A stretch of 52,276 nt of DNA from the NCBI GenBank assembly GCA_011600865.1, contig GCA_011600865.1_4890.1; one strand, given 5' to 3'. Positions 10,090 through 18,076 of this stretch are shown one piece after another. The notes beneath the pieces are model-generated. The model was not told the origin of the DNA. It made no database searches and saw nothing but the letters and a program-made list of their open reading frames with translations. Both the position numbers and the translations under genes were made by a program. The stretch's first letter is position 1. Every line of letters starts with the position of its first letter. The stretch comes from Escherichia coli (GTDB lineage: Bacteria; Pseudomonadota; Gammaproteobacteria; Enterobacterales; Enterobacteriaceae).

Positions 10090-11760
10090 ATGGCTTTTGA
10101 AGCTCGCTGGTATCAACAAGAAGCGGTCACGGCTTGGTGGTCGTACTTCAATTCTTATAGTGGTAATCCACTTATTGTCATGCCAACAGGTTCAGGTAAA
10201 TCACCTGTGCTTGGTATGTTGATGAAGGATATTCTTACCAGCTATCCCCGTCAGCGCATTCTTATATTGACACACGTCAAGGAGCTGGTAGAACAAGACG
10301 CCAGAGCGATTGTTCGCCACTGGCCACAAGCACCAGTATCAATCTACTCTTCAGGCGCAGGACACAAAGACTTTTCAGGTCGTATCGTTGTAGCGTCAGT
10401 ACAGTCGATTATTAAGAACCTGGAAGAAGCAGGTAAGTTCAATCTTATATTCATTGACGAAGCCCATCTCGTTCCTGAGAAGTCTGAAACAACATACCGT
10501 AAGGTTATTGCTCATTTCAAAGAGCTTAATCCTAAGGTAAAGGTAACAGGTCTTACAGCAACTCCGTACCGCCTGGCAGGTGGTCACTTACTTGACTGCG
10601 GTATATTTACCGACATCTGCTATGACCTTACAACACCTGACGCATTCACCAGACTGGTAAATGAAGGCTTCCTGTCTCGCCTGGTCAACAAGAAAGTGTT
10701 AACCAAGATTGACACCAGCAATGTTGGCGAAAGGATGGGTGACTACATACCGTCAGAGCTTGAGAAGGTAGCCAACCAACACAGCATAACAGTTGCGGCC
10801 ATCAGGGAGATGATGCACTACGGTAAAGACAGGAGTCACGTCCTTGTATTCGCCACAAGTGTTGAACACGCCCACAACGTGGCTGACGAGTTTAATTTAC
10901 GCGGATGGCAAACTGTTGTTGTACACGGCGGTCTTACAAAGAAAGAACGTGAAGCGACACTGGAAGAGTTTACAAGCGGACGAGCACGGGTATGTGTAAA
11001 CGTAAACGTACTTACAACAGGATTTGACTATCCTGAAATTGATATGCTCGGTATCTTGCGCCCGTCCACGTCTGTTGCTTTGTGGGTGCAGATACTCGGC
11101 CGAGGATTACGTACAGCGCCTGGTAAGCATGACTGTCTTGTCATGGACTTTACATCTAATACCATTGACCTTGGTCCTATCGACGACCCGGCAGTTCCGC
11201 CACGTCTTGGTAAGAAGAAAAAGAAACGGTCAGAGAAAACACCTGGTGGTAAAGAGTGCCCTGTCTGCCACCAGGTAAGTGGTTATGCCGCCCGTACATG
11301 TAAGCATCCGGCTAAAGGAAGTACGCCGGACGAGAATGGTGTATATCCGATGTGCGGTCATGAATTTGAGTTTACAGTTAACGGACCTGCTATTGCCTTC
11401 ACTTCATCAGAAGAAGAGGTAATGACCAACGGTCAGCTTCGTGTTGTGGATAAGGATGTTACGCTGGTAAACTATTCTTTATTCCAGAAGCAGGGACGGC
11501 CTGACAGTATAAAGGTTGTGTACTACTCAAACCTGGAAGTGTATACAACATGGGTAAATATAGAGGCCCATGGTAATGCTAAGCAAATGGCAGATGCCTG
11601 GTGGCGTAATGCTGCAGGAACCGAACCGCCTGAAACATGCGACGAGTTTATTCGCCGTAAGGGTGAGCTGGCTATTCCTAAGCGCATAAAGGTATGGATT
11701 AAACGACCTTACCCACAAATCATGAACTACGATTGGGGGAATGGCTATGGCGCTCGATGA
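10090..11760 (+). CDS. Superfamily 2 DEAH-box DNA helicase with a C-terminal zinc-ribbon-like domain
   Basis: Walker A PTGSGKS and motif II FIDEAH; C-terminal region has Cys/His pairs (CPVCHQ, CKHP, MCGHE). Confidence 0.85.
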   Translation: MAFEARWYQQEAVTAWWSYFNSYSGNPLIVMPTGSGKSPVLGMLMKDILTSYPRQRILILTHVKELVEQDARAIVRHWPQAPVSIYSSGAGHKDFSGRIVVASVQSIIKNLEEAGKFNLIFIDEAHLVPEKSETTYRKVIAHFKELNPKVKVTGLTATPYRLAGGHLLDCGIFTDICYDLTTPDAFTRLVNEGFLSRLVNKKVLTKIDTSNVGERMGDYIPSELEKVANQHSITVAAIREMMHYGKDRSHVLVFATSVEHAHNVADEFNLRGWQTVVVHGGLTKKEREATLEEFTSGRARVCVNVNVLTTGFDYPEIDMLGILRPSTSVALWVQILGRGLRTAPGKHDCLVMDFTSNTIDLGPIDDPAVPPRLGKKKKKRSEKTPGGKECPVCHQVSGYAARTCKHPAKGSTPDENGVYPMCGHEFEFTVNGPAIAFTSSEEEVMTNGQLRVVDKDVTLVNYSLFQKQGRPDSIKVVYYSNLEVYTTWVNIEAHGNAKQMADAWWRNAAGTEPPETCDEFIRRKGELAIPKRIKVWIKRPYPQIMNYDWGNGYGAR

Positions 11761-11968
11761 CAGAGAACTATTTGAACGGGTAGCAACCCAGGCTAAAGCT
11801 TTACCGCGGCATGTTCGCCGGCAGCTTATTATATACCTGCAGGATATGAGCTGTGCGAACTGCCGTAGCTTTCAGGCAGGAGGCTGTCTATTATCCGGAG
11901 GCAAAACACCACCGCCGGCAGTCCTGTCTTCCGGATGTAAACTTTTTGACTATGACGTGCCTTTCTAG
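11741..11968 (+). CDS. Hypothetical small Cys-containing protein
   Basis: 75 aa ORF overlapping the helicase 3' end; contains a CANC motif. Could be spurious. Confidence 0.35.
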   Translation: MAMALDDRELFERVATQAKALPRHVRRQLIIYLQDMSCANCRSFQAGGCLLSGGKTPPPAVLSSGCKLFDYDVPF

Positions 11969-13220: not shown

Positions 13221-13619
13221 ATGAATCTACAACGTGTCGCTGAAGCTTATTATAGAATTTGGGTACTTCGTCTTGAAGGTCAAATTGACTACGTAAACAC
13301 TGTCGGTCGTGAAGACTACCTGCCTGCATCCTCTTTCCATGAGGTATGCAACCTTGCTCAAACACTCGAGCATGAATTTGATAAGGTTAAATTTACACGC
13401 GAAGCGCAAAATAACTTTATCAAATTTGAAACAACCATGCGTTGCAAGTTCCCGTTTATCAAGCGTATATCTCGTACCGGCCTTTTCATTGTCCCCTTTC
13501 CTGTGGGTAAAGACCGTTGGGACGTATTAGAGAAGGCCCGACATATAATCTGGTCTACTGAAACAAAACGTAAGTTTATCGAAACTGTTTGTAAGGAGTT
13601 AAGAAATGCGATTCAGTAA
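13221..13619 (+). CDS. Hypothetical protein
   Basis: 132 aa ORF with GGAGAG RBS; overlaps the start of the next gene. Confidence 0.6.
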   Translation: MNLQRVAEAYYRIWVLRLEGQIDYVNTVGREDYLPASSFHEVCNLAQTLEHEFDKVKFTREAQNNFIKFETTMRCKFPFIKRISRTGLFIVPFPVGKDRWDVLEKARHIIWSTETKRKFIETVCKELRNAIQ

Positions 13620-14199
13620 AATTGCTGCAGGTGTTACAGCTTTCCACGAGAAGTTTGACCTCAAGCCAATTAGCCAAGGTGGTAAGCCAGAGTTCAAACT
13701 TCGTTATGACCGTCTTATTGAAGAGATGGATGAAATTAAACAAGCTAAGAAGGAAGGCGATAAAGCTGGATTCTTAGACGGTATTGTAGACTTAATCTAT
13801 ATTGCTGCAGGTACGTTATACCTGTATGACCAGACAGCATGGTTCACCAACGAATTTGAGTATCCGATTCTGTTGACTACGCCCTGCGGATTTATGGACC
13901 GCTTTGACGCTGAAGGTCTTATCGTGTATGTTAAGGATACCGAAGACACTCATTGCGATCGTTTGGCGCAGTTAATTATCCACCTGATTACCTGGTGTGC
14001 AAACAACAACTGGCCACTTGACGACGCATGGGATGCGGTACAGGCCGCTAACATGGCGAAAGAACGCGCCAAGCCTGATGCAAGCAATAGTAAGCATAAG
14101 TCTGGTCAGGATATTGTTAAGCCTGAAGGATGGAAAGCACCTGATATTCAGGCAATCATCGACGCACACGTTAACCCGGCCCAAAAGGAACTGTTTTAA
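13606..14199 (+). CDS. MazG-like nucleoside triphosphate pyrophosphohydrolase
   Basis: 197 aa; acidic metal-binding type motifs EEMDE and DGIVDL typical of all-alpha MazG/HisE-like NTP pyrophosphatases; stop overlaps the start of the thymidylate-synthase-fold gene. Confidence 0.6.
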   Translation: MRFSKIAAGVTAFHEKFDLKPISQGGKPEFKLRYDRLIEEMDEIKQAKKEGDKAGFLDGIVDLIYIAAGTLYLYDQTAWFTNEFEYPILLTTPCGFMDRFDAEGLIVYVKDTEDTHCDRLAQLIIHLITWCANNNWPLDDAWDAVQAANMAKERAKPDASNSKHKSGQDIVKPEGWKAPDIQAIIDAHVNPAQKELF

Positions 14200-15083
14200 T
14201 GAAAACATACAGCACTGTCGATTCTCTTTACAGCGACATCATTTCGTTTATCCTGCGTAAGGGTGAAGATGTCGAAGACCGTACAGGTGTTGGTACACGC
14301 CGTTGTTTTGGTACAGCGTTTAAGCTGGCTTTCAAGGACAACAAACTGATGGTGCCGGTATTTAAACCTGTTAACATCAAAGCTGTTGCTGCTGAGCTTT
14401 ATTGCTTTATTAACGGCATTTCAAATGTCGATACACTCAAAGGTTTTGGCTGCAACTGGTGGGAAGGTAATCTGCAAGATGCAAACAAACGTTGGGGTAC
14501 ACCAGACAACCGTGATTTAGGGCCTGTGTACGGCGTGCAGTGGGTTAAGCCATTCTATAAGAATGGTGTTCTCACTAACCAGCTTAAAGATGTTATTGAA
14601 ACGCTGAAGGTTAAACCTACCGACCGCCGGGCATACATTACGGCATGGAACCCACAAGAGATGGACGCCATGGCCCTTCCGCCTTGCTACCATGGTTTTC
14701 AGCTGTTCATTAACAACCGTAATGAATTAGAGCTGATGTTCCATATGCGTAGCGCGGATGTTATTCTGGGTCTGCCTCATGACATTCTGCTACATCAGAT
14801 GTTGCAGATTACCATCGCAGCAGAGCTGGGTGTTGGGGTAGGGGATATGACTGTAACCTTGGGTGATTATCATATCTATAAGAACCATATCGACGCTGCC
14901 AAGATTTTCTTACAGCGCATCGTGAGCAATACAGACACCACGCTGGACACTAACTTTGAAGGCCGTCCTGACATTAACGCGATTTACGACGTGTCAGTAT
15001 TTGACTTCACTCCTGCCGCTGTTACGCCAATGGTTGAGAAGTACAAGCCAATGCCAAACATCAAACTCCAAATGGCCGTATAA
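14199..15083 (+). CDS. Thymidylate synthase family enzyme; specificity residue suggests a dCMP C5-hydroxymethylase or dCMP methylase rather than canonical ThyA
   Basis: 294 aa with ThyA hallmarks DRTGVGT, DLGPVYGVQW, YITAWNP, catalytic Cys163 in PPCYH (TGC 14685-14687) and GDYHIYKNH. The residue aligning with E. coli ThyA Asn177 (GLPFN) is Asp195 (GLPHD, GAC 14781-14783). Alignment done by eye against ThyA recalled from memory. Confidence 0.8.
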   Translation: MKTYSTVDSLYSDIISFILRKGEDVEDRTGVGTRRCFGTAFKLAFKDNKLMVPVFKPVNIKAVAAELYCFINGISNVDTLKGFGCNWWEGNLQDANKRWGTPDNRDLGPVYGVQWVKPFYKNGVLTNQLKDVIETLKVKPTDRRAYITAWNPQEMDAMALPPCYHGFQLFINNRNELELMFHMRSADVILGLPHDILLHQMLQITIAAELGVGVGDMTVTLGDYHIYKNHIDAAKIFLQRIVSNTDTTLDTNFEGRPDINAIYDVSVFDFTPAAVTPMVEKYKPMPNIKLQMAV

Positions 15084-15090
15084 GATGGAG

Positions 15091-15106
15091 CGGGGCTCCG
15101 GCCCCG
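15091..15106 (+). terminator. Terminator-like hairpin
   Basis: cggggc / gccccg stem with a tccg tetraloop between the TS-fold gene and the next gene. Confidence 0.3.
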
Positions 15107-15113
15107 TTATACT

Positions 15114-16109
15114 ATGAGCAAGTTTAACTATGACACCAAACAAATACAGACTGCCGTTCAACAAGCTCGTCCCATCAAGTATACTGATAGCGGTCTTATG
15201 GGCAAAATATGGATTGCAGACGGAACAATCCATTCATACTACAAGAACGTATTACTACGAGCACCATGTAAAGGATTCCCCGACCTGCAAGTGGATGCTG
15301 AATCGTTTCGTAAGGCCGTTAATGCGGCAAGAACTGAAGAGATTACTTTTAACATTACAGCAGCTGGAAACCTCACAGTCACAGCAGGCGTACTTAAAAC
15401 AAGAATGCAAGCGCTTAATGAACCAATACCACCGCTTGCTACAGTTAACAACTGGTATTCAGCTCATGGCGAATTACTACCGGTATTAACAGCCCTGGCC
15501 AAATGGGTACCTAACGAGGCACCGCAGGTATGGGCAACATCTTTACTTCTGCGCGATGGCTATGCTTACGCTACTAACGGCAAGTATATGATTCGTGAGA
15601 AGCTGAATGTTGATTTTGAATTTGAATGTGCCATAGCCAAGCCAATGCTTGAGGCTTTGGTTAAGCTGAAGATGGAACCCACAAGTGTAGGATACGCCCG
15701 CGGTCAGATGTTCTTCGGCTTTGCAGACGGCGTACAAATGGATGCTCCGGTACTGGCGGCTAAATGGCCAGACGTATCGAAGTTCTTCAATATGGAAATG
15801 GATATGCAGGCCATCACTCCTGAGTTCCTGGAAGTTATGGACCAGCTTACAGGTTACGATGAAGGTCAAGCCATTCTGGAGATAACTGGCGAGTCAACAG
15901 CAAAAGCAGATTTACCAGACAAGATTATTCCGAAGATGTCCGTCGACATTAAGTTCCAGTCGACTAAGTTTAGTAAACCGTTCAACTGTGTTATTAGCCA
16001 GATGAGTAAACTGGCTAAAGGCATGGAAAGAATAGGACTTGGTAGTCAGGCGCTCAAAATGGAAAACTCAACTCGTACAGTTGTAATCGCGTATGTGAGA
16101 GGGGACTGA
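15114..16109 (+). CDS. Hypothetical protein, possibly a DnaN-like sliding clamp
   Basis: 331 aa directly upstream of, and start-stop coupled with, the DNA polymerase. YAYATNGKYMI resembles the beta-clamp ATDGHRL motif and the C-terminus VVIAYV resembles the DnaN C-terminus; the product call is tentative. Confidence 0.55.
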   Translation: MSKFNYDTKQIQTAVQQARPIKYTDSGLMGKIWIADGTIHSYYKNVLLRAPCKGFPDLQVDAESFRKAVNAARTEEITFNITAAGNLTVTAGVLKTRMQALNEPIPPLATVNNWYSAHGELLPVLTALAKWVPNEAPQVWATSLLLRDGYAYATNGKYMIREKLNVDFEFECAIAKPMLEALVKLKMEPTSVGYARGQMFFGFADGVQMDAPVLAAKWPDVSKFFNMEMDMQAITPEFLEVMDQLTGYDEGQAILEITGESTAKADLPDKIIPKMSVDIKFQSTKFSKPFNCVISQMSKLAKGMERIGLGSQALKMENSTRTVVIAYVRGD

Positions 16110-18076
16110 TGAGCTTTTTATTCGATAGCTTTGAAGGTGCAAAGAATGTTAAACCTATCAGCCGTCCTATACCATACGTCAGGGATACTGGATGGCGGCC
16201 GCGCGCGCATTACCCGGATTTGTCTTCTGCGAAGATTATCGGTCTTGACTGTGAAACATACGACCCAGGGATGGATACAAATGGTAGTGGTTGGGCCAGG
16301 AGGGAAGGTCATATCGTTGGAGTTAGTATCGCTACGGACAATGGCTTCAAGGCTTACTACCCAATCAGACACGAGCTCGGCGAAGAGGATAACCTTCCAG
16401 CTGAGGAAGTACTTGGTTGGCTTCGGCGCGAACTCTCGCGACCTAACCAAGTTAAAGTCGGTGCTAACATCACATATGACTTGGGCTGGCTTGCAGCAGA
16501 AGGCGTGGAAGTCAAAGGATTGTGCATGGATGTACAATTCGCGGAAGCATTACTCGACCCAGGCGCGCGTGTTGCACTTGAAGGACTTGGACGAAAATAT
16601 GTAGGCGAAGGTAAAGACTCAGCCGAGATGTACCAATGGATTTCAGATGCTTATGGATGTAAGCCAACAGGTGAAGCCAGAAAGTACATCTACAAAACGC
16701 CTCCTCGTCTTGTGGGTTACTACGCTGAATCTGACGCCGACTTACCAATACACATTATCAAAGCCCAGTGGCCTTTGTTAAGTCGCTGGTGTTTAACAGA
16801 CGTATTCTATATGGAGTGCAAGCTCATTCCATTAATGCTTAAGATGCGTTTTGCAGGTGTGCGTGTTGACCTTGACAAAGCCAAAGAGGCTGATGATACG
16901 CTTAGCGCTGAAATAAGGAAAATGCACCAGCAGATTAAAGACCAGATTGGCTTTAATATTAACGTTAACTCAGGTCCTGATTTAGCACTTGCATTTGACC
17001 ATTTAGGTCTGGAGTACTTCAAAACAGCGGCGGGTAATCCGTCGTTTACGGCAGACTTCTTAGCAGGTTTGCACCATCCGTTCGCGGAACTGGTGTCTGA
17101 GATTAAGTCTTATGAGAAAATCCAGTCCACGTTTATTCGTGGCTATATATTGGGGATGAATACAAATGGCTTCCTTCACGGTCAATTCCATCAAATGCGC
17201 GGTGATGACGGTGGAACCGTTAGTGGTCGGTTTAGCTCATCTGACCCTAATCTGCAGAATATACCGTCTCGACACAAAATACTGGGACCACTCCTTCGTG
17301 CTTGTTTCGTACCGGACGTCGGACACAGATGGGGATCAGCAGACTACGCCCAAATTGAATATAGATTCATGGCGCATTTTGCAGTCGGCCCGGGCGCTGA
17401 TGAGTTACGAGCAATTTTCGCGGCTAACCCGGAAGCAGATTACCACAATGTTATGGTCGATATTATCAAGGAAGCATCAGGTCACGTTATAGAGCGTAAA
17501 CCGGCTAAGACCATCAACTTTGGTTTGTTATACGGCATGATGCTTAATGCTCTTGCCCGTAAGTTAGCAATGACGCCTGAAGAAGCAGAACCTGTTCTGA
17601 AGGCGTATCATCAGGGTGCGCCATTTATCGGCGCTACCATGAAGCACTACGAGGATTTATGCTATAGCCAGGGGTACGTAGAAACCTTTATGGGCCGGAA
17701 GACATGGTTCAACAAATGGGTTCCAAAGCGTGGTGGATTCGGTAAGATGCCTTTGCCATTTGAAGAAGCACGTCAGGAGTACGGTCCGAACATTAAACTG
17801 GCAGACACCCACAAGGCAATCAACCGAGTGCTGCAAGGGTCGTCAGCGGACCAGATGAAGTCTGCAATGCTGAAAGGATATGAAGACGGTTACTTCGACG
17901 TGATTGGCGTACCTCGCCTGACGGTACACGATGAGCTTAACTTCTCTCTACCAGCTGGTAAGCAAGCAGAAGATGGATTCTATGATTTCGTACGGGTCAT
18001 GGAAACTGTGCTACCGCTTCGTGTACCTGTTCTTACTGATGCTAAGATAGAAAGTAACTGGGCAGAGGCACACTAA
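16109..18076 (+). CDS. Family A DNA polymerase with 3'-5' exonuclease domain
   Basis: Exo I motif LDCETYD; polymerase motif A DYAQIEYR, motif B RKPAKTINFGLLYGM and motif C VHDE. Confidence 0.92.
   Translation: MSFLFDSFEGAKNVKPISRPIPYVRDTGWRPRAHYPDLSSAKIIGLDCETYDPGMDTNGSGWARREGHIVGVSIATDNGFKAYYPIRHELGEEDNLPAEEVLGWLRRELSRPNQVKVGANITYDLGWLAAEGVEVKGLCMDVQFAEALLDPGARVALEGLGRKYVGEGKDSAEMYQWISDAYGCKPTGEARKYIYKTPPRLVGYYAESDADLPIHIIKAQWPLLSRWCLTDVFYMECKLIPLMLKMRFAGVRVDLDKAKEADDTLSAEIRKMHQQIKDQIGFNINVNSGPDLALAFDHLGLEYFKTAAGNPSFTADFLAGLHHPFAELVSEIKSYEKIQSTFIRGYILGMNTNGFLHGQFHQMRGDDGGTVSGRFSSSDPNLQNIPSRHKILGPLLRACFVPDVGHRWGSADYAQIEYRFMAHFAVGPGADELRAIFAANPEADYHNVMVDIIKEASGHVIERKPAKTINFGLLYGMMLNALARKLAMTPEEAEPVLKAYHQGAPFIGATMKHYEDLCYSQGYVETFMGRKTWFNKWVPKRGGFGKMPLPFEEARQEYGPNIKLADTHKAINRVLQGSSADQMKSAMLKGYEDGYFDVIGVPRLTVHDELNFSLPAGKQAEDGFYDFVRVMETVLPLRVPVLTDAKIESNWAEAH

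Follow-up and report, generated by a model that had tools for sequence, protein, structure and literature searches.

A divergent beta-type sliding clamp gene beside a family-A DNA polymerase gene in a 52-kb phage genome, and a candidate clamp-binding peptide at the polymerase N-terminus

The clamp gene and its locus

The gene considered here occupies positions 15114..16109 on the plus strand of a 52,276-nucleotide stretch of DNA from an Escherichia coli assembly (GenBank GCA_011600865.1, contig GCA_011600865.1_4890.1), which at its full length is referred to below as the window. It opens with ATG and encodes a protein of 331 amino acids (aa) with a predicted isoelectric point (pI) of 6.8, almost certainly a highly divergent homologue of the bacterial beta sliding clamp, DnaN; exactly one such gene is present in the window. 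A first-pass annotation, made from the letters, had set it between a thymidylate-synthase (TS)-fold gene and a polymerase gene, and this placement stands: its 5' neighbour is a TS-fold gene (14199..15083; Pfam PF00303, 1.5e-62) and its 3' neighbour encodes a family-A DNA polymerase, PolA (16109..18076; PF00476 at 1.5e-63, together with the 3'-5' exonuclease PF01612). The same annotation was right that the stop of the gene is coupled to the polymerase start, one base being common to the stop TGA (16107-16109) and the PolA ATG (16109-16111), so that the junction reads gacTGATGagc. A Shine-Dalgarno-like GAGAGGGGA at 16097-16105 lies inside the 3' end of the clamp gene, and from this and the overlap we take the two genes to be translationally coupled. 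That the gene is genuine is indicated by the span of its homologues, whose identity falls from 99% to ~17%, and by the 3452 cluster representatives that a profile search found at E<=1e-3.

The window is a Rosemountvirus genome: the region of the clamp is ~96% identical to Salmonella and Escherichia Rosemountvirus myoviruses such as phage ciri (MT074442), and the protein is 100% identical to its counterpart in phage brorfarstad. Many near-identical Rosemountvirus records already label the gene 'DNA polymerase beta subunit' or 'DNA polymerase processivity factor', so the protein cannot be called unassigned, as it had been at first; the clamp annotation is known from public records and from PHROGs and is not a new gene assignment. 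In Salmonella phage rivia (MT074438) the annotation splits the gene in two (BFVD models of 186 and 150 aa), and Salmonella phage SPHG1 carries a 214-aa fragment; in these otherwise near-identical genomes the split and the shortened form reflect either frameshifts or sequencing errors. More widely, tblastn finds the family in 172 phage records, which include Queuovirinae (CAjan, Seurat, PaMx25, VpKK5), BcepGomr and phages of Stenotrophomonas, Achromobacter, Erwinia and Vibrio, where labels vary between 'replicative clamp' and 'DNA polymerase III beta subunit'. Mentions in the literature are at the level of annotation ('replicative clamp', PMC4559383). The features discussed in the text are collected in Table 1.

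Table 1. Positions of the clamp gene, its polymerase neighbour and associated features in the window
Feature	Position	Strand	Basis
Beta-type (DnaN-like) sliding clamp gene, 331 aa	15114..16109	+	PHROG, profile, hhalign, AlphaFold2, Foldseek
Codons of YAYATNGKYMI (residues 150-160), counterpart of a pocket segment	15561..15593	+	profile-profile alignment, family conservation
Codons of WPDVSKFF (residues 218-225), counterpart of a pocket segment	15765..15788	+	profile-profile alignment, family conservation
Coupling junction with Shine-Dalgarno-like GAGAGGGGA and TGA/ATG overlap	16097..16111	+	sequence
Family-A DNA polymerase, 655 aa, 3'-5' exonuclease and polymerase domains; presumed clamp client	16109..18076	+	Pfam, PHROGs
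PolA N-terminal MSFLFDSFE, candidate clamp-binding motif	16109..16135	+	motif comparison
GGAG followed by GC-rich hairpin, between TS stop and clamp ATG	15087..15108	+	predicted fold
C-terminal QKELF of the MazG-like protein (gene 13606..14199)	14182..14196	+	sequence, homologue comparison
75-aa Cys4 protein ending DYDVPF-COOH	11741..11968	+	sequence, homologue comparison

Homology and predicted fold of the 331-residue protein

Taken as a single sequence the protein finds no match in the Protein Data Bank (PDB), nor does it match any model of Pfam even at E<=1, of NCBIfam even at E<=10, or of PADLOC. It is matched over residues 1-328 by PHROG 947, 'DNA polymerase processivity factor' (1.4e-47; profile positions 2-351 of 368). 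Twenty homologues, from 99% to ~20% identity, were found in a collection of 5.8 billion proteins; among the 3452 representatives, which a 15-sequence profile matched, the best-scoring 150 are almost all ~310-335 aa long. Against PDB sequences the 15-sequence profile matches Deinococcus (D. radiodurans) DnaN at 1.3e-5, while a profile of 61 sequences matches 39 distinct sequences, every one of them a beta clamp (best 7.4e-14). A profile-profile comparison with E. coli DnaN by hhalign, for which the DnaN sequence was checked to be identical to 1mmi_A, gave a probability of 95.1% (E 3e-8) over clamp residues 10-230. Weak matches to the Pfam DnaN models (best 6e-4) are given by only 6 of the 61 relatives and concern the central domain; the protein is thus a remote homologue that falls outside the curated boundaries of the DnaN family.

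The predicted structure points the same way. An AlphaFold2 model built with the 15-sequence alignment (pLDDT 89.9, pTM 0.84) consists of three repeats of two helices and two sheets each, corresponding approximately to residues 1-110 (domain I), 113-225 (domain II) and 228-331 (domain III), with helices at 8-18 and 62-71, at 121-129 and 176-185, and at 236-246 and 294-301, respectively. In a Foldseek search of the PDB the top 50 matches are all bacterial DnaN, near-full-length, with query TM-scores of 0.73-0.80 and E ~1e-18 at 10-15% identity, and among the viral models of BFVD the matches are phage beta clamps. A clamp of the PCNA or T4 gp45 type, with two domains per chain and a trimeric ring, was excluded by the three domains per chain and by the exclusively DnaN identity of the 50 best PDB matches. 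The first-pass annotation had raised two possibilities for this gene, a phage-encoded sliding clamp or a novel nucleotide- or DNA-modifying enzyme, and had named structure prediction and a profile search as checks. Both checks, the first through a three-domain model that superposes on DnaN over its full length, come out in favour of the clamp; the modifying enzyme is rejected because the predicted fold is that of a non-catalytic clamp.

Two segments of the protein align with segments that line the peptide-binding pocket in bacterial beta. In the hhalign alignment YAYATNGKYMI (150-160) lies opposite RTVATDGHRLA of E. coli beta (168-178), which holds the pocket residues T172, G174, H175, R176 and L177, and WPDVSKFF (218-225) lies opposite FPDYRRVL (241-248), which holds P242, R246 and V247. 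The most conserved positions of the clamp family, T154, N155, W218 and P219, each nearly invariant, fall within these aligned segments. Of the two short stretches in which a likeness to DnaN had originally been seen by eye, the first is therefore upheld; the second, the C-terminal VVIAYV, is not reached by the sequence alignments and is covered only indirectly, by the full-length superposition.

The polymerase neighbour and its N-terminal peptide

Across the family, PolA is the constant partner of the clamp, whereas the genes upstream change by lineage. In all 11 of the named phages, among them Queuovirinae, BcepGomr and the Stenotrophomonas and Achromobacter phages, the clamp precedes PolA either immediately or with one or two small open reading frames (ORFs) in between, and in 7 of the 11 the clamp stop and the next start overlap or lie <=2 nucleotides (nt) apart. 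Among 80 viral contigs gathered with the clamp profile, PolA follows on the same strand within ~1.1 kb in 78, the other two ending at the clamp. On the upstream side, Queuovirinae-type phages and BcepGomr carry a DpdA/7-deazaguanine cluster, often with touching stop and start codons; DpdA (annotated as queuine tRNA-ribosyltransferase) is the immediate neighbour in three loci (L003, L005 and L009), giving a dpdA-clamp-polA run with touching or overlapping codons. In CAjan a small hypothetical ORF stands between DpdA and the clamp. Rosemount-like phages have the TS-like gene in this position, preceded by a MazG-like gene, and Achromobacter phage ART has a hypothetical protein; at one further locus (L180) the upstream gene encodes 310 aa with no Pfam match.

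The clamp-adjacent PolAs have a short N-terminal peptide in common, although their exonuclease domains are of two types. Within the first ~12 residues, 65 of 67 unique N-termini contain [GS]-hydrophobic-[FWL]-[WF]-x-[DESGN]; the typical form is M-R-x-D-[AS]-[ILV]-G-[LFM]-F-W-[EDQ]-D, whose G, F, W and D are each found in 65-66 of 70 sequences. Rosemount-like PolAs show a shortened form: MSFLFDSF in the window, and elsewhere MSFLFDGF, MSFLFDDF, MSFLFEGF, MLFENF or, from a TTG start, MLFSDF. The window peptide can be read as a variant of the pattern [GS]-hydrophobic-[FL]-[WF]-x-[DNSG]-hydrophobic. The peptide is followed by a variable linker that is basic and proline-rich (~18 residues in the window PolA) and then by a conserved PDTGWRPxxYPDL just before Exo I. 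In clamp-bearing PolAs with a locatable Exo I (the VpKK5/window type) the peptide sits 36-40 residues before that motif. A clamp motif was looked for at the PolA C-terminus as well; none is present.

For comparison we used 80 PolA relatives from an alignment led by a Mesyanzhinovviridae polymerase (loci L098-L177). None of the 80 has a clamp homologue within 4.5 kb of PolA, and none of the 80 polymerases carries the G-hydrophobic-F-W motif. Instead, 55 of 70 unique control N-termini begin with Qxx[LMIF][FLIM] (for example MQFPLF, TQIPLF, LQMAMF and MQLPLL), the canonical bacterial clamp-binding pentapeptide, which in these clamp-less polymerases sits 20-23 residues before Exo I. For one of these phages, Ab18, the complete genome yielded no clamp homologue even with the HMMER filters off. 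Two further loci with PolA and no clamp (L012 and L013) belong to the same clamp-less set, most of whose polymerases start with the host-type pentapeptide.

On this evidence we consider it probable that the protein serves as the processivity clamp of the adjacent PolA. That the N-terminal peptide is itself the contact between the two is a narrower claim, drawn from motif comparison, on which we regard the case as evenly balanced. The control polymerases suggest in turn that clamp-less phages with a host-type QxxLF PolA use the beta clamp of the host. The two observations could be joined into a scheme with two states, in which clamp-less phages keep M..QxxLF and so hijack host beta, while PHROG 947 phages have exchanged it for a motif of their own, G-[LFM]-F-W-x-D or (in Rosemountvirus) SFLFDSF, on a longer linker and thus possess an orthogonal pair, loaded by the host DnaX complex perhaps with the help of a small protein ending in DYDVPF, and with a MazG-like enzyme ending in QKELF as a second client. 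As a whole this scheme is tentative, and we would sooner doubt it than rely on it. In our view the most useful new element of this study is the motif at the PolA N-terminus, which differs according to whether a clamp is present; no paper on an N-terminal clamp-binding motif in phage PolA was found, though coverage of the literature was incomplete and this is not proof of novelty.

Several points weigh against a clamp that works with PolA through this peptide. The Pfam DnaN models (DNA_pol3_beta, _2 and _3) remain below threshold for the protein, and no experimental work on any member of the family was found in the searched literature. As the PolAs with and without a clamp fall into separate clades, the latter ~31% identical to the window PolA, no more than one or two evolutionary events may lie behind the correlation of motif and clamp. 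When residues 1-40 of PolA were fused N-terminally to the clamp and modelled with AlphaFold2, the peptide was disordered (pLDDT ~30) and did not dock, in what is a weak test given a monomer, an artificial fusion and no alignment depth for the peptide. Dinoroseobacter phage R26L is an exception to the synteny, its distant clamp homologue (E 3e-16) lying two genes upstream of PolA, and its PolA N-terminus, MVGLNNGELII..., fits neither motif class; a downstream ORF of R26L labelled 'putative DNA polymerase III' does not match the clamp profile. Finally, loading of the clamp by the host, considered below, is purely a matter of inference.

Probable mode of loading, possible further clients and the place of the clamp among known systems

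The mechanism that we propose begins with synthesis of the clamp together with PolA by way of the overlapping stop and start codons. By homology with bacterial beta, the clamp would form a head-to-tail dimeric ring around duplex DNA, and, as the conservation and co-variation of the motif suggest, it would tether PolA by holding MSFLFDSF in the pocket between domains II and III, which would give processive replication of the 52-kb genome. Opening and loading of the ring would presumably fall to the host DnaX complex, as no phage loader is encoded. Two further steps are speculative: a small protein with a tip like that of the single-stranded DNA-binding protein (SSB) may aid loading, and the C-terminal QKELF of the MazG-like pyrophosphohydrolase may let the clamp recruit that enzyme.

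The window and its annotated relative KE24 have one replication module, comprising a primase (844 aa, DUF3987), a Sak4-like AAA_24 ATPase, a DUF669 SSB-like protein, a dCMP deaminase, a Cas4-like exonuclease, an SF2 helicase, the MazG-like pyrophosphohydrolase, the TS-like enzyme, the clamp and PolA, among whose proteins no member of a clamp-loader family was detected. The Sak4-like ATPase was considered as a phage-encoded loader and rejected, its match to a clamp-loader PHROG (4e-4) being confined to the P-loop. The host DnaX complex is the simplest remaining candidate because no phage loader was found, and we put forward loading by this complex as a possibility that still falls short of being likely. 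Phages of 40-140 kb are typically without clamp homologues, and the pairs of PolA and polIII-beta known at the time were those of large phages with a gamma subunit gene as well (Kazlauskas and Venclovas 2011, PMC3201878).

A different answer to the missing loader would be that none is needed, the protein binding DNA as a monomer or open dimer in the manner of herpesvirus UL42 or UL44, or loading itself or threading onto linear ends, possibly with PolA as a chaperone. The lack of a detectable loader in the 52-kb genome speaks for this, as does the fact that more than half of viral processivity factors lack an accompanying loader and that some form no ring (PMC4889955); the phage protein moreover has shorter domains than DnaN (331 vs 366 aa in all) and a pI of 6.77, against 5.25 for E. 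coli beta. Loader-independent viral processivity factors are, however, basic (PMC3201878), and a factor of the UL42/UL44 type, basic and without a ring, is not what the family resembles: the pI is near neutral in the window and 5.4-5.9 in four Queuovirinae-type and BcepGomr clamps, that is 5.4-6.8 in five members, and by this criterion the protein resembles a ring clamp that has to be loaded. The model also matches whole DnaN protomers in superposition and has the crescent shape that a dimeric ring requires. A host loader is at hand, since DnaX complexes are present in the cell and use the same clamp pocket through the delta-beta interaction. We accordingly judge a loader-free mode of action to be unlikely.

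Phage proteins that target host beta are known, and the clamp could likewise be a decoy for host takeover, which would sequester the loader, Pol III or clamp clients, or poison host beta through mixed dimers, and in this way halt replication of the host. Without a phage loader it must contact host factors if it is loaded at all, which is common ground with such a role; the tight and ancient coupling to PolA across very divergent phages, together with the PolA-specific motif, nevertheless favours a replicative partnership, and mixed dimers are improbable at 11-15% identity to host beta. Very little credence is left for a decoy.

The processivity clamp may have clients besides PolA. The MazG-like pyrophosphohydrolase ends in ...NPAQKELF, a canonical-looking beta-clamp-binding pentapeptide, and its close homologues all end in a tail of the type Q-[LMQK]-E-[LM]-x-[FLV] (QLELL, QMELL, GGQMEMDV, GGQQELDL and, in L178, QLELPL), while more distant ones stop right after the conserved VKPEGW core, without a tail. 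Next to PolA, this enzyme may serve as a further client, whether of the phage clamp or of that of the host. One can go further and see the clamp chiefly as a mobile docking platform for MazG-like, TS-like or DpdA-type enzymes, or as a late-transcription factor like T4 gp45; a gene of DNA modification or nucleotide metabolism lies directly upstream of the clamp in most of the named phages, and a tail of the QKELF type recurs in the close homologues. Clamps are known as tool-belts (PMC9690074), and phage Mu employs beta in late transcription (PMC12867686). Against a primarily docking role stand the invariance of PolA as partner where the upstream genes vary by lineage, the PolA motif that tracks the presence of the clamp, and the estimate that chance alone would place about one terminal QxxLF in a proteome this large. 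We hold such a role to be unlikely as the chief one, though a hub and a processivity function are compatible and not mutually exclusive.

Of interest for loading is a 75-aa Cys4 protein encoded directly after the SF2 helicase, which belongs to PHROG 23504 (function not known) and has DYDVPF as its C-terminus. A (V/I)PF-COOH end recurs in six distinct phages or contigs besides the window and the near-identical KE24, the carriers including ZCSE2, SOI901, L178, VpKK5 (QIDIPF) and Birtae (NDEIPF). It resembles the C-terminal tip of SSB, DDDIPF, and in E. coli this tip binds the chi subunit of the clamp loader. Given this likeness, the protein could act as an adaptor between the phage replisome and factors of the host, the clamp loader among them, which we offer as a lead only.

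Two features close to the clamp gene may be recorded beside these. In the TS-like enzyme upstream, the canonical G(V/L)PFN reads GLPHD, so that the dUMP-specifying Asn (N177 in E. coli, N229 in L. casei) is Asp, and the PCH after the catalytic Cys reads PCY. T4 dCMP hydroxymethylase has Asp at this position too, as do N229D mutants that take dCMP as substrate. Given the nearby genes for the MazG-like pyrophosphohydrolase and a dCMP deaminase, this may be an enzyme of dCMP modification and not of dTMP synthesis. Between this gene and the clamp, hairpin arms at 15089-15096 and 15101-15108 are predicted to form an 8-bp stem with six G-C/C-G core pairs, the clamp ATG lying 5 nt past the stem and 7 nt past the core. 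The fold z-score is only -1.3. A hairpin at this place is kept, with different sequence and a T-rich tail, in phages ZCSE2 and SOI901 and is absent in Erwinia phage RF1; its role may be that of a structure-bridged ribosome-binding site or of a weak terminator.

The phage clamp is like bacterial DnaN (E. coli 2pol/1mmi, B. subtilis 4tr6) in its three tandem domains, its six inner helices per protomer, the full-length superposition (TM 0.75-0.80) and the register of its ATxG and [FW]PD segments; it differs in being ~35 residues shorter, in having a family-A and not a family-C polymerase as partner, and in the lack of a cognate loader in the genome. With the other PHROG 947 clamps (those of CAjan, Seurat, PaMx25, VpKK5, BcepGomr and the Stenotrophomonas and Achromobacter phages) it shares the usual position directly upstream of PolA and a replication module with primase, AAA_24, DUF669, Cas4-like exonuclease and SF2 helicase. 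The Rosemount-type subfamily is nevertheless only 17-30% identical to these, its PolA has SFLFDSF in place of G-[LFM]-F-W-x-D, and TS and MazG-like genes stand upstream where the others have the 7-deazaguanine cluster.

Accessory factors that make phage replicative polymerases processive are well known from T7 (gp5 with thioredoxin) and T4 (gp45 with gp44/62). T7 borrows a host protein, which is bound to an insertion in the polymerase thumb, and T4 gp45 is a two-domain trimer with a loader of its own, to which the polymerase binds by a C-terminal peptide; here, by contrast, the clamp is of the three-domain beta type and the candidate binding peptide is N-terminal. In Ma-LMM01 and RSL1 a family-A polymerase has likewise been proposed to use a bacterial-type beta clamp, yet these phages exceed 150 kb and encode a clamp-loader (gamma) subunit (PMC3201878), while the present genome has 52 kb and no loader. 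The actinobacterial PolA2 (APEX) carries an internal QxxLF, described as the first beta-clamp-binding motif in bacterial family-A polymerases; it occupies a loop of an inactive exonuclease domain, and its partner is the host clamp (PMC12926913, 2026). A family-A polymerase with a clamp-binding motif, here a candidate one, is thus common to both, but the phage motif is at the extreme N-terminus of a proofreading-competent PolA and departs from QxxLF in phages that encode a clamp themselves.

A mid-sized phage of 52 kb that pairs PolA with a bacterial-type clamp and has no loader represents a situation that surveys of viral replicases have flagged as unexplained (PMC3201878, PMC4889955). There could also be practical interest in a compact, orthogonal pair of PolA and clamp as a system for processive DNA synthesis. 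For the phages themselves, the alternation between a host-type and a private N-terminal peptide offers a simple handle on the evolution of clamp specificity, on the orthogonality of phage and host clamps, and on the identity of the loader.

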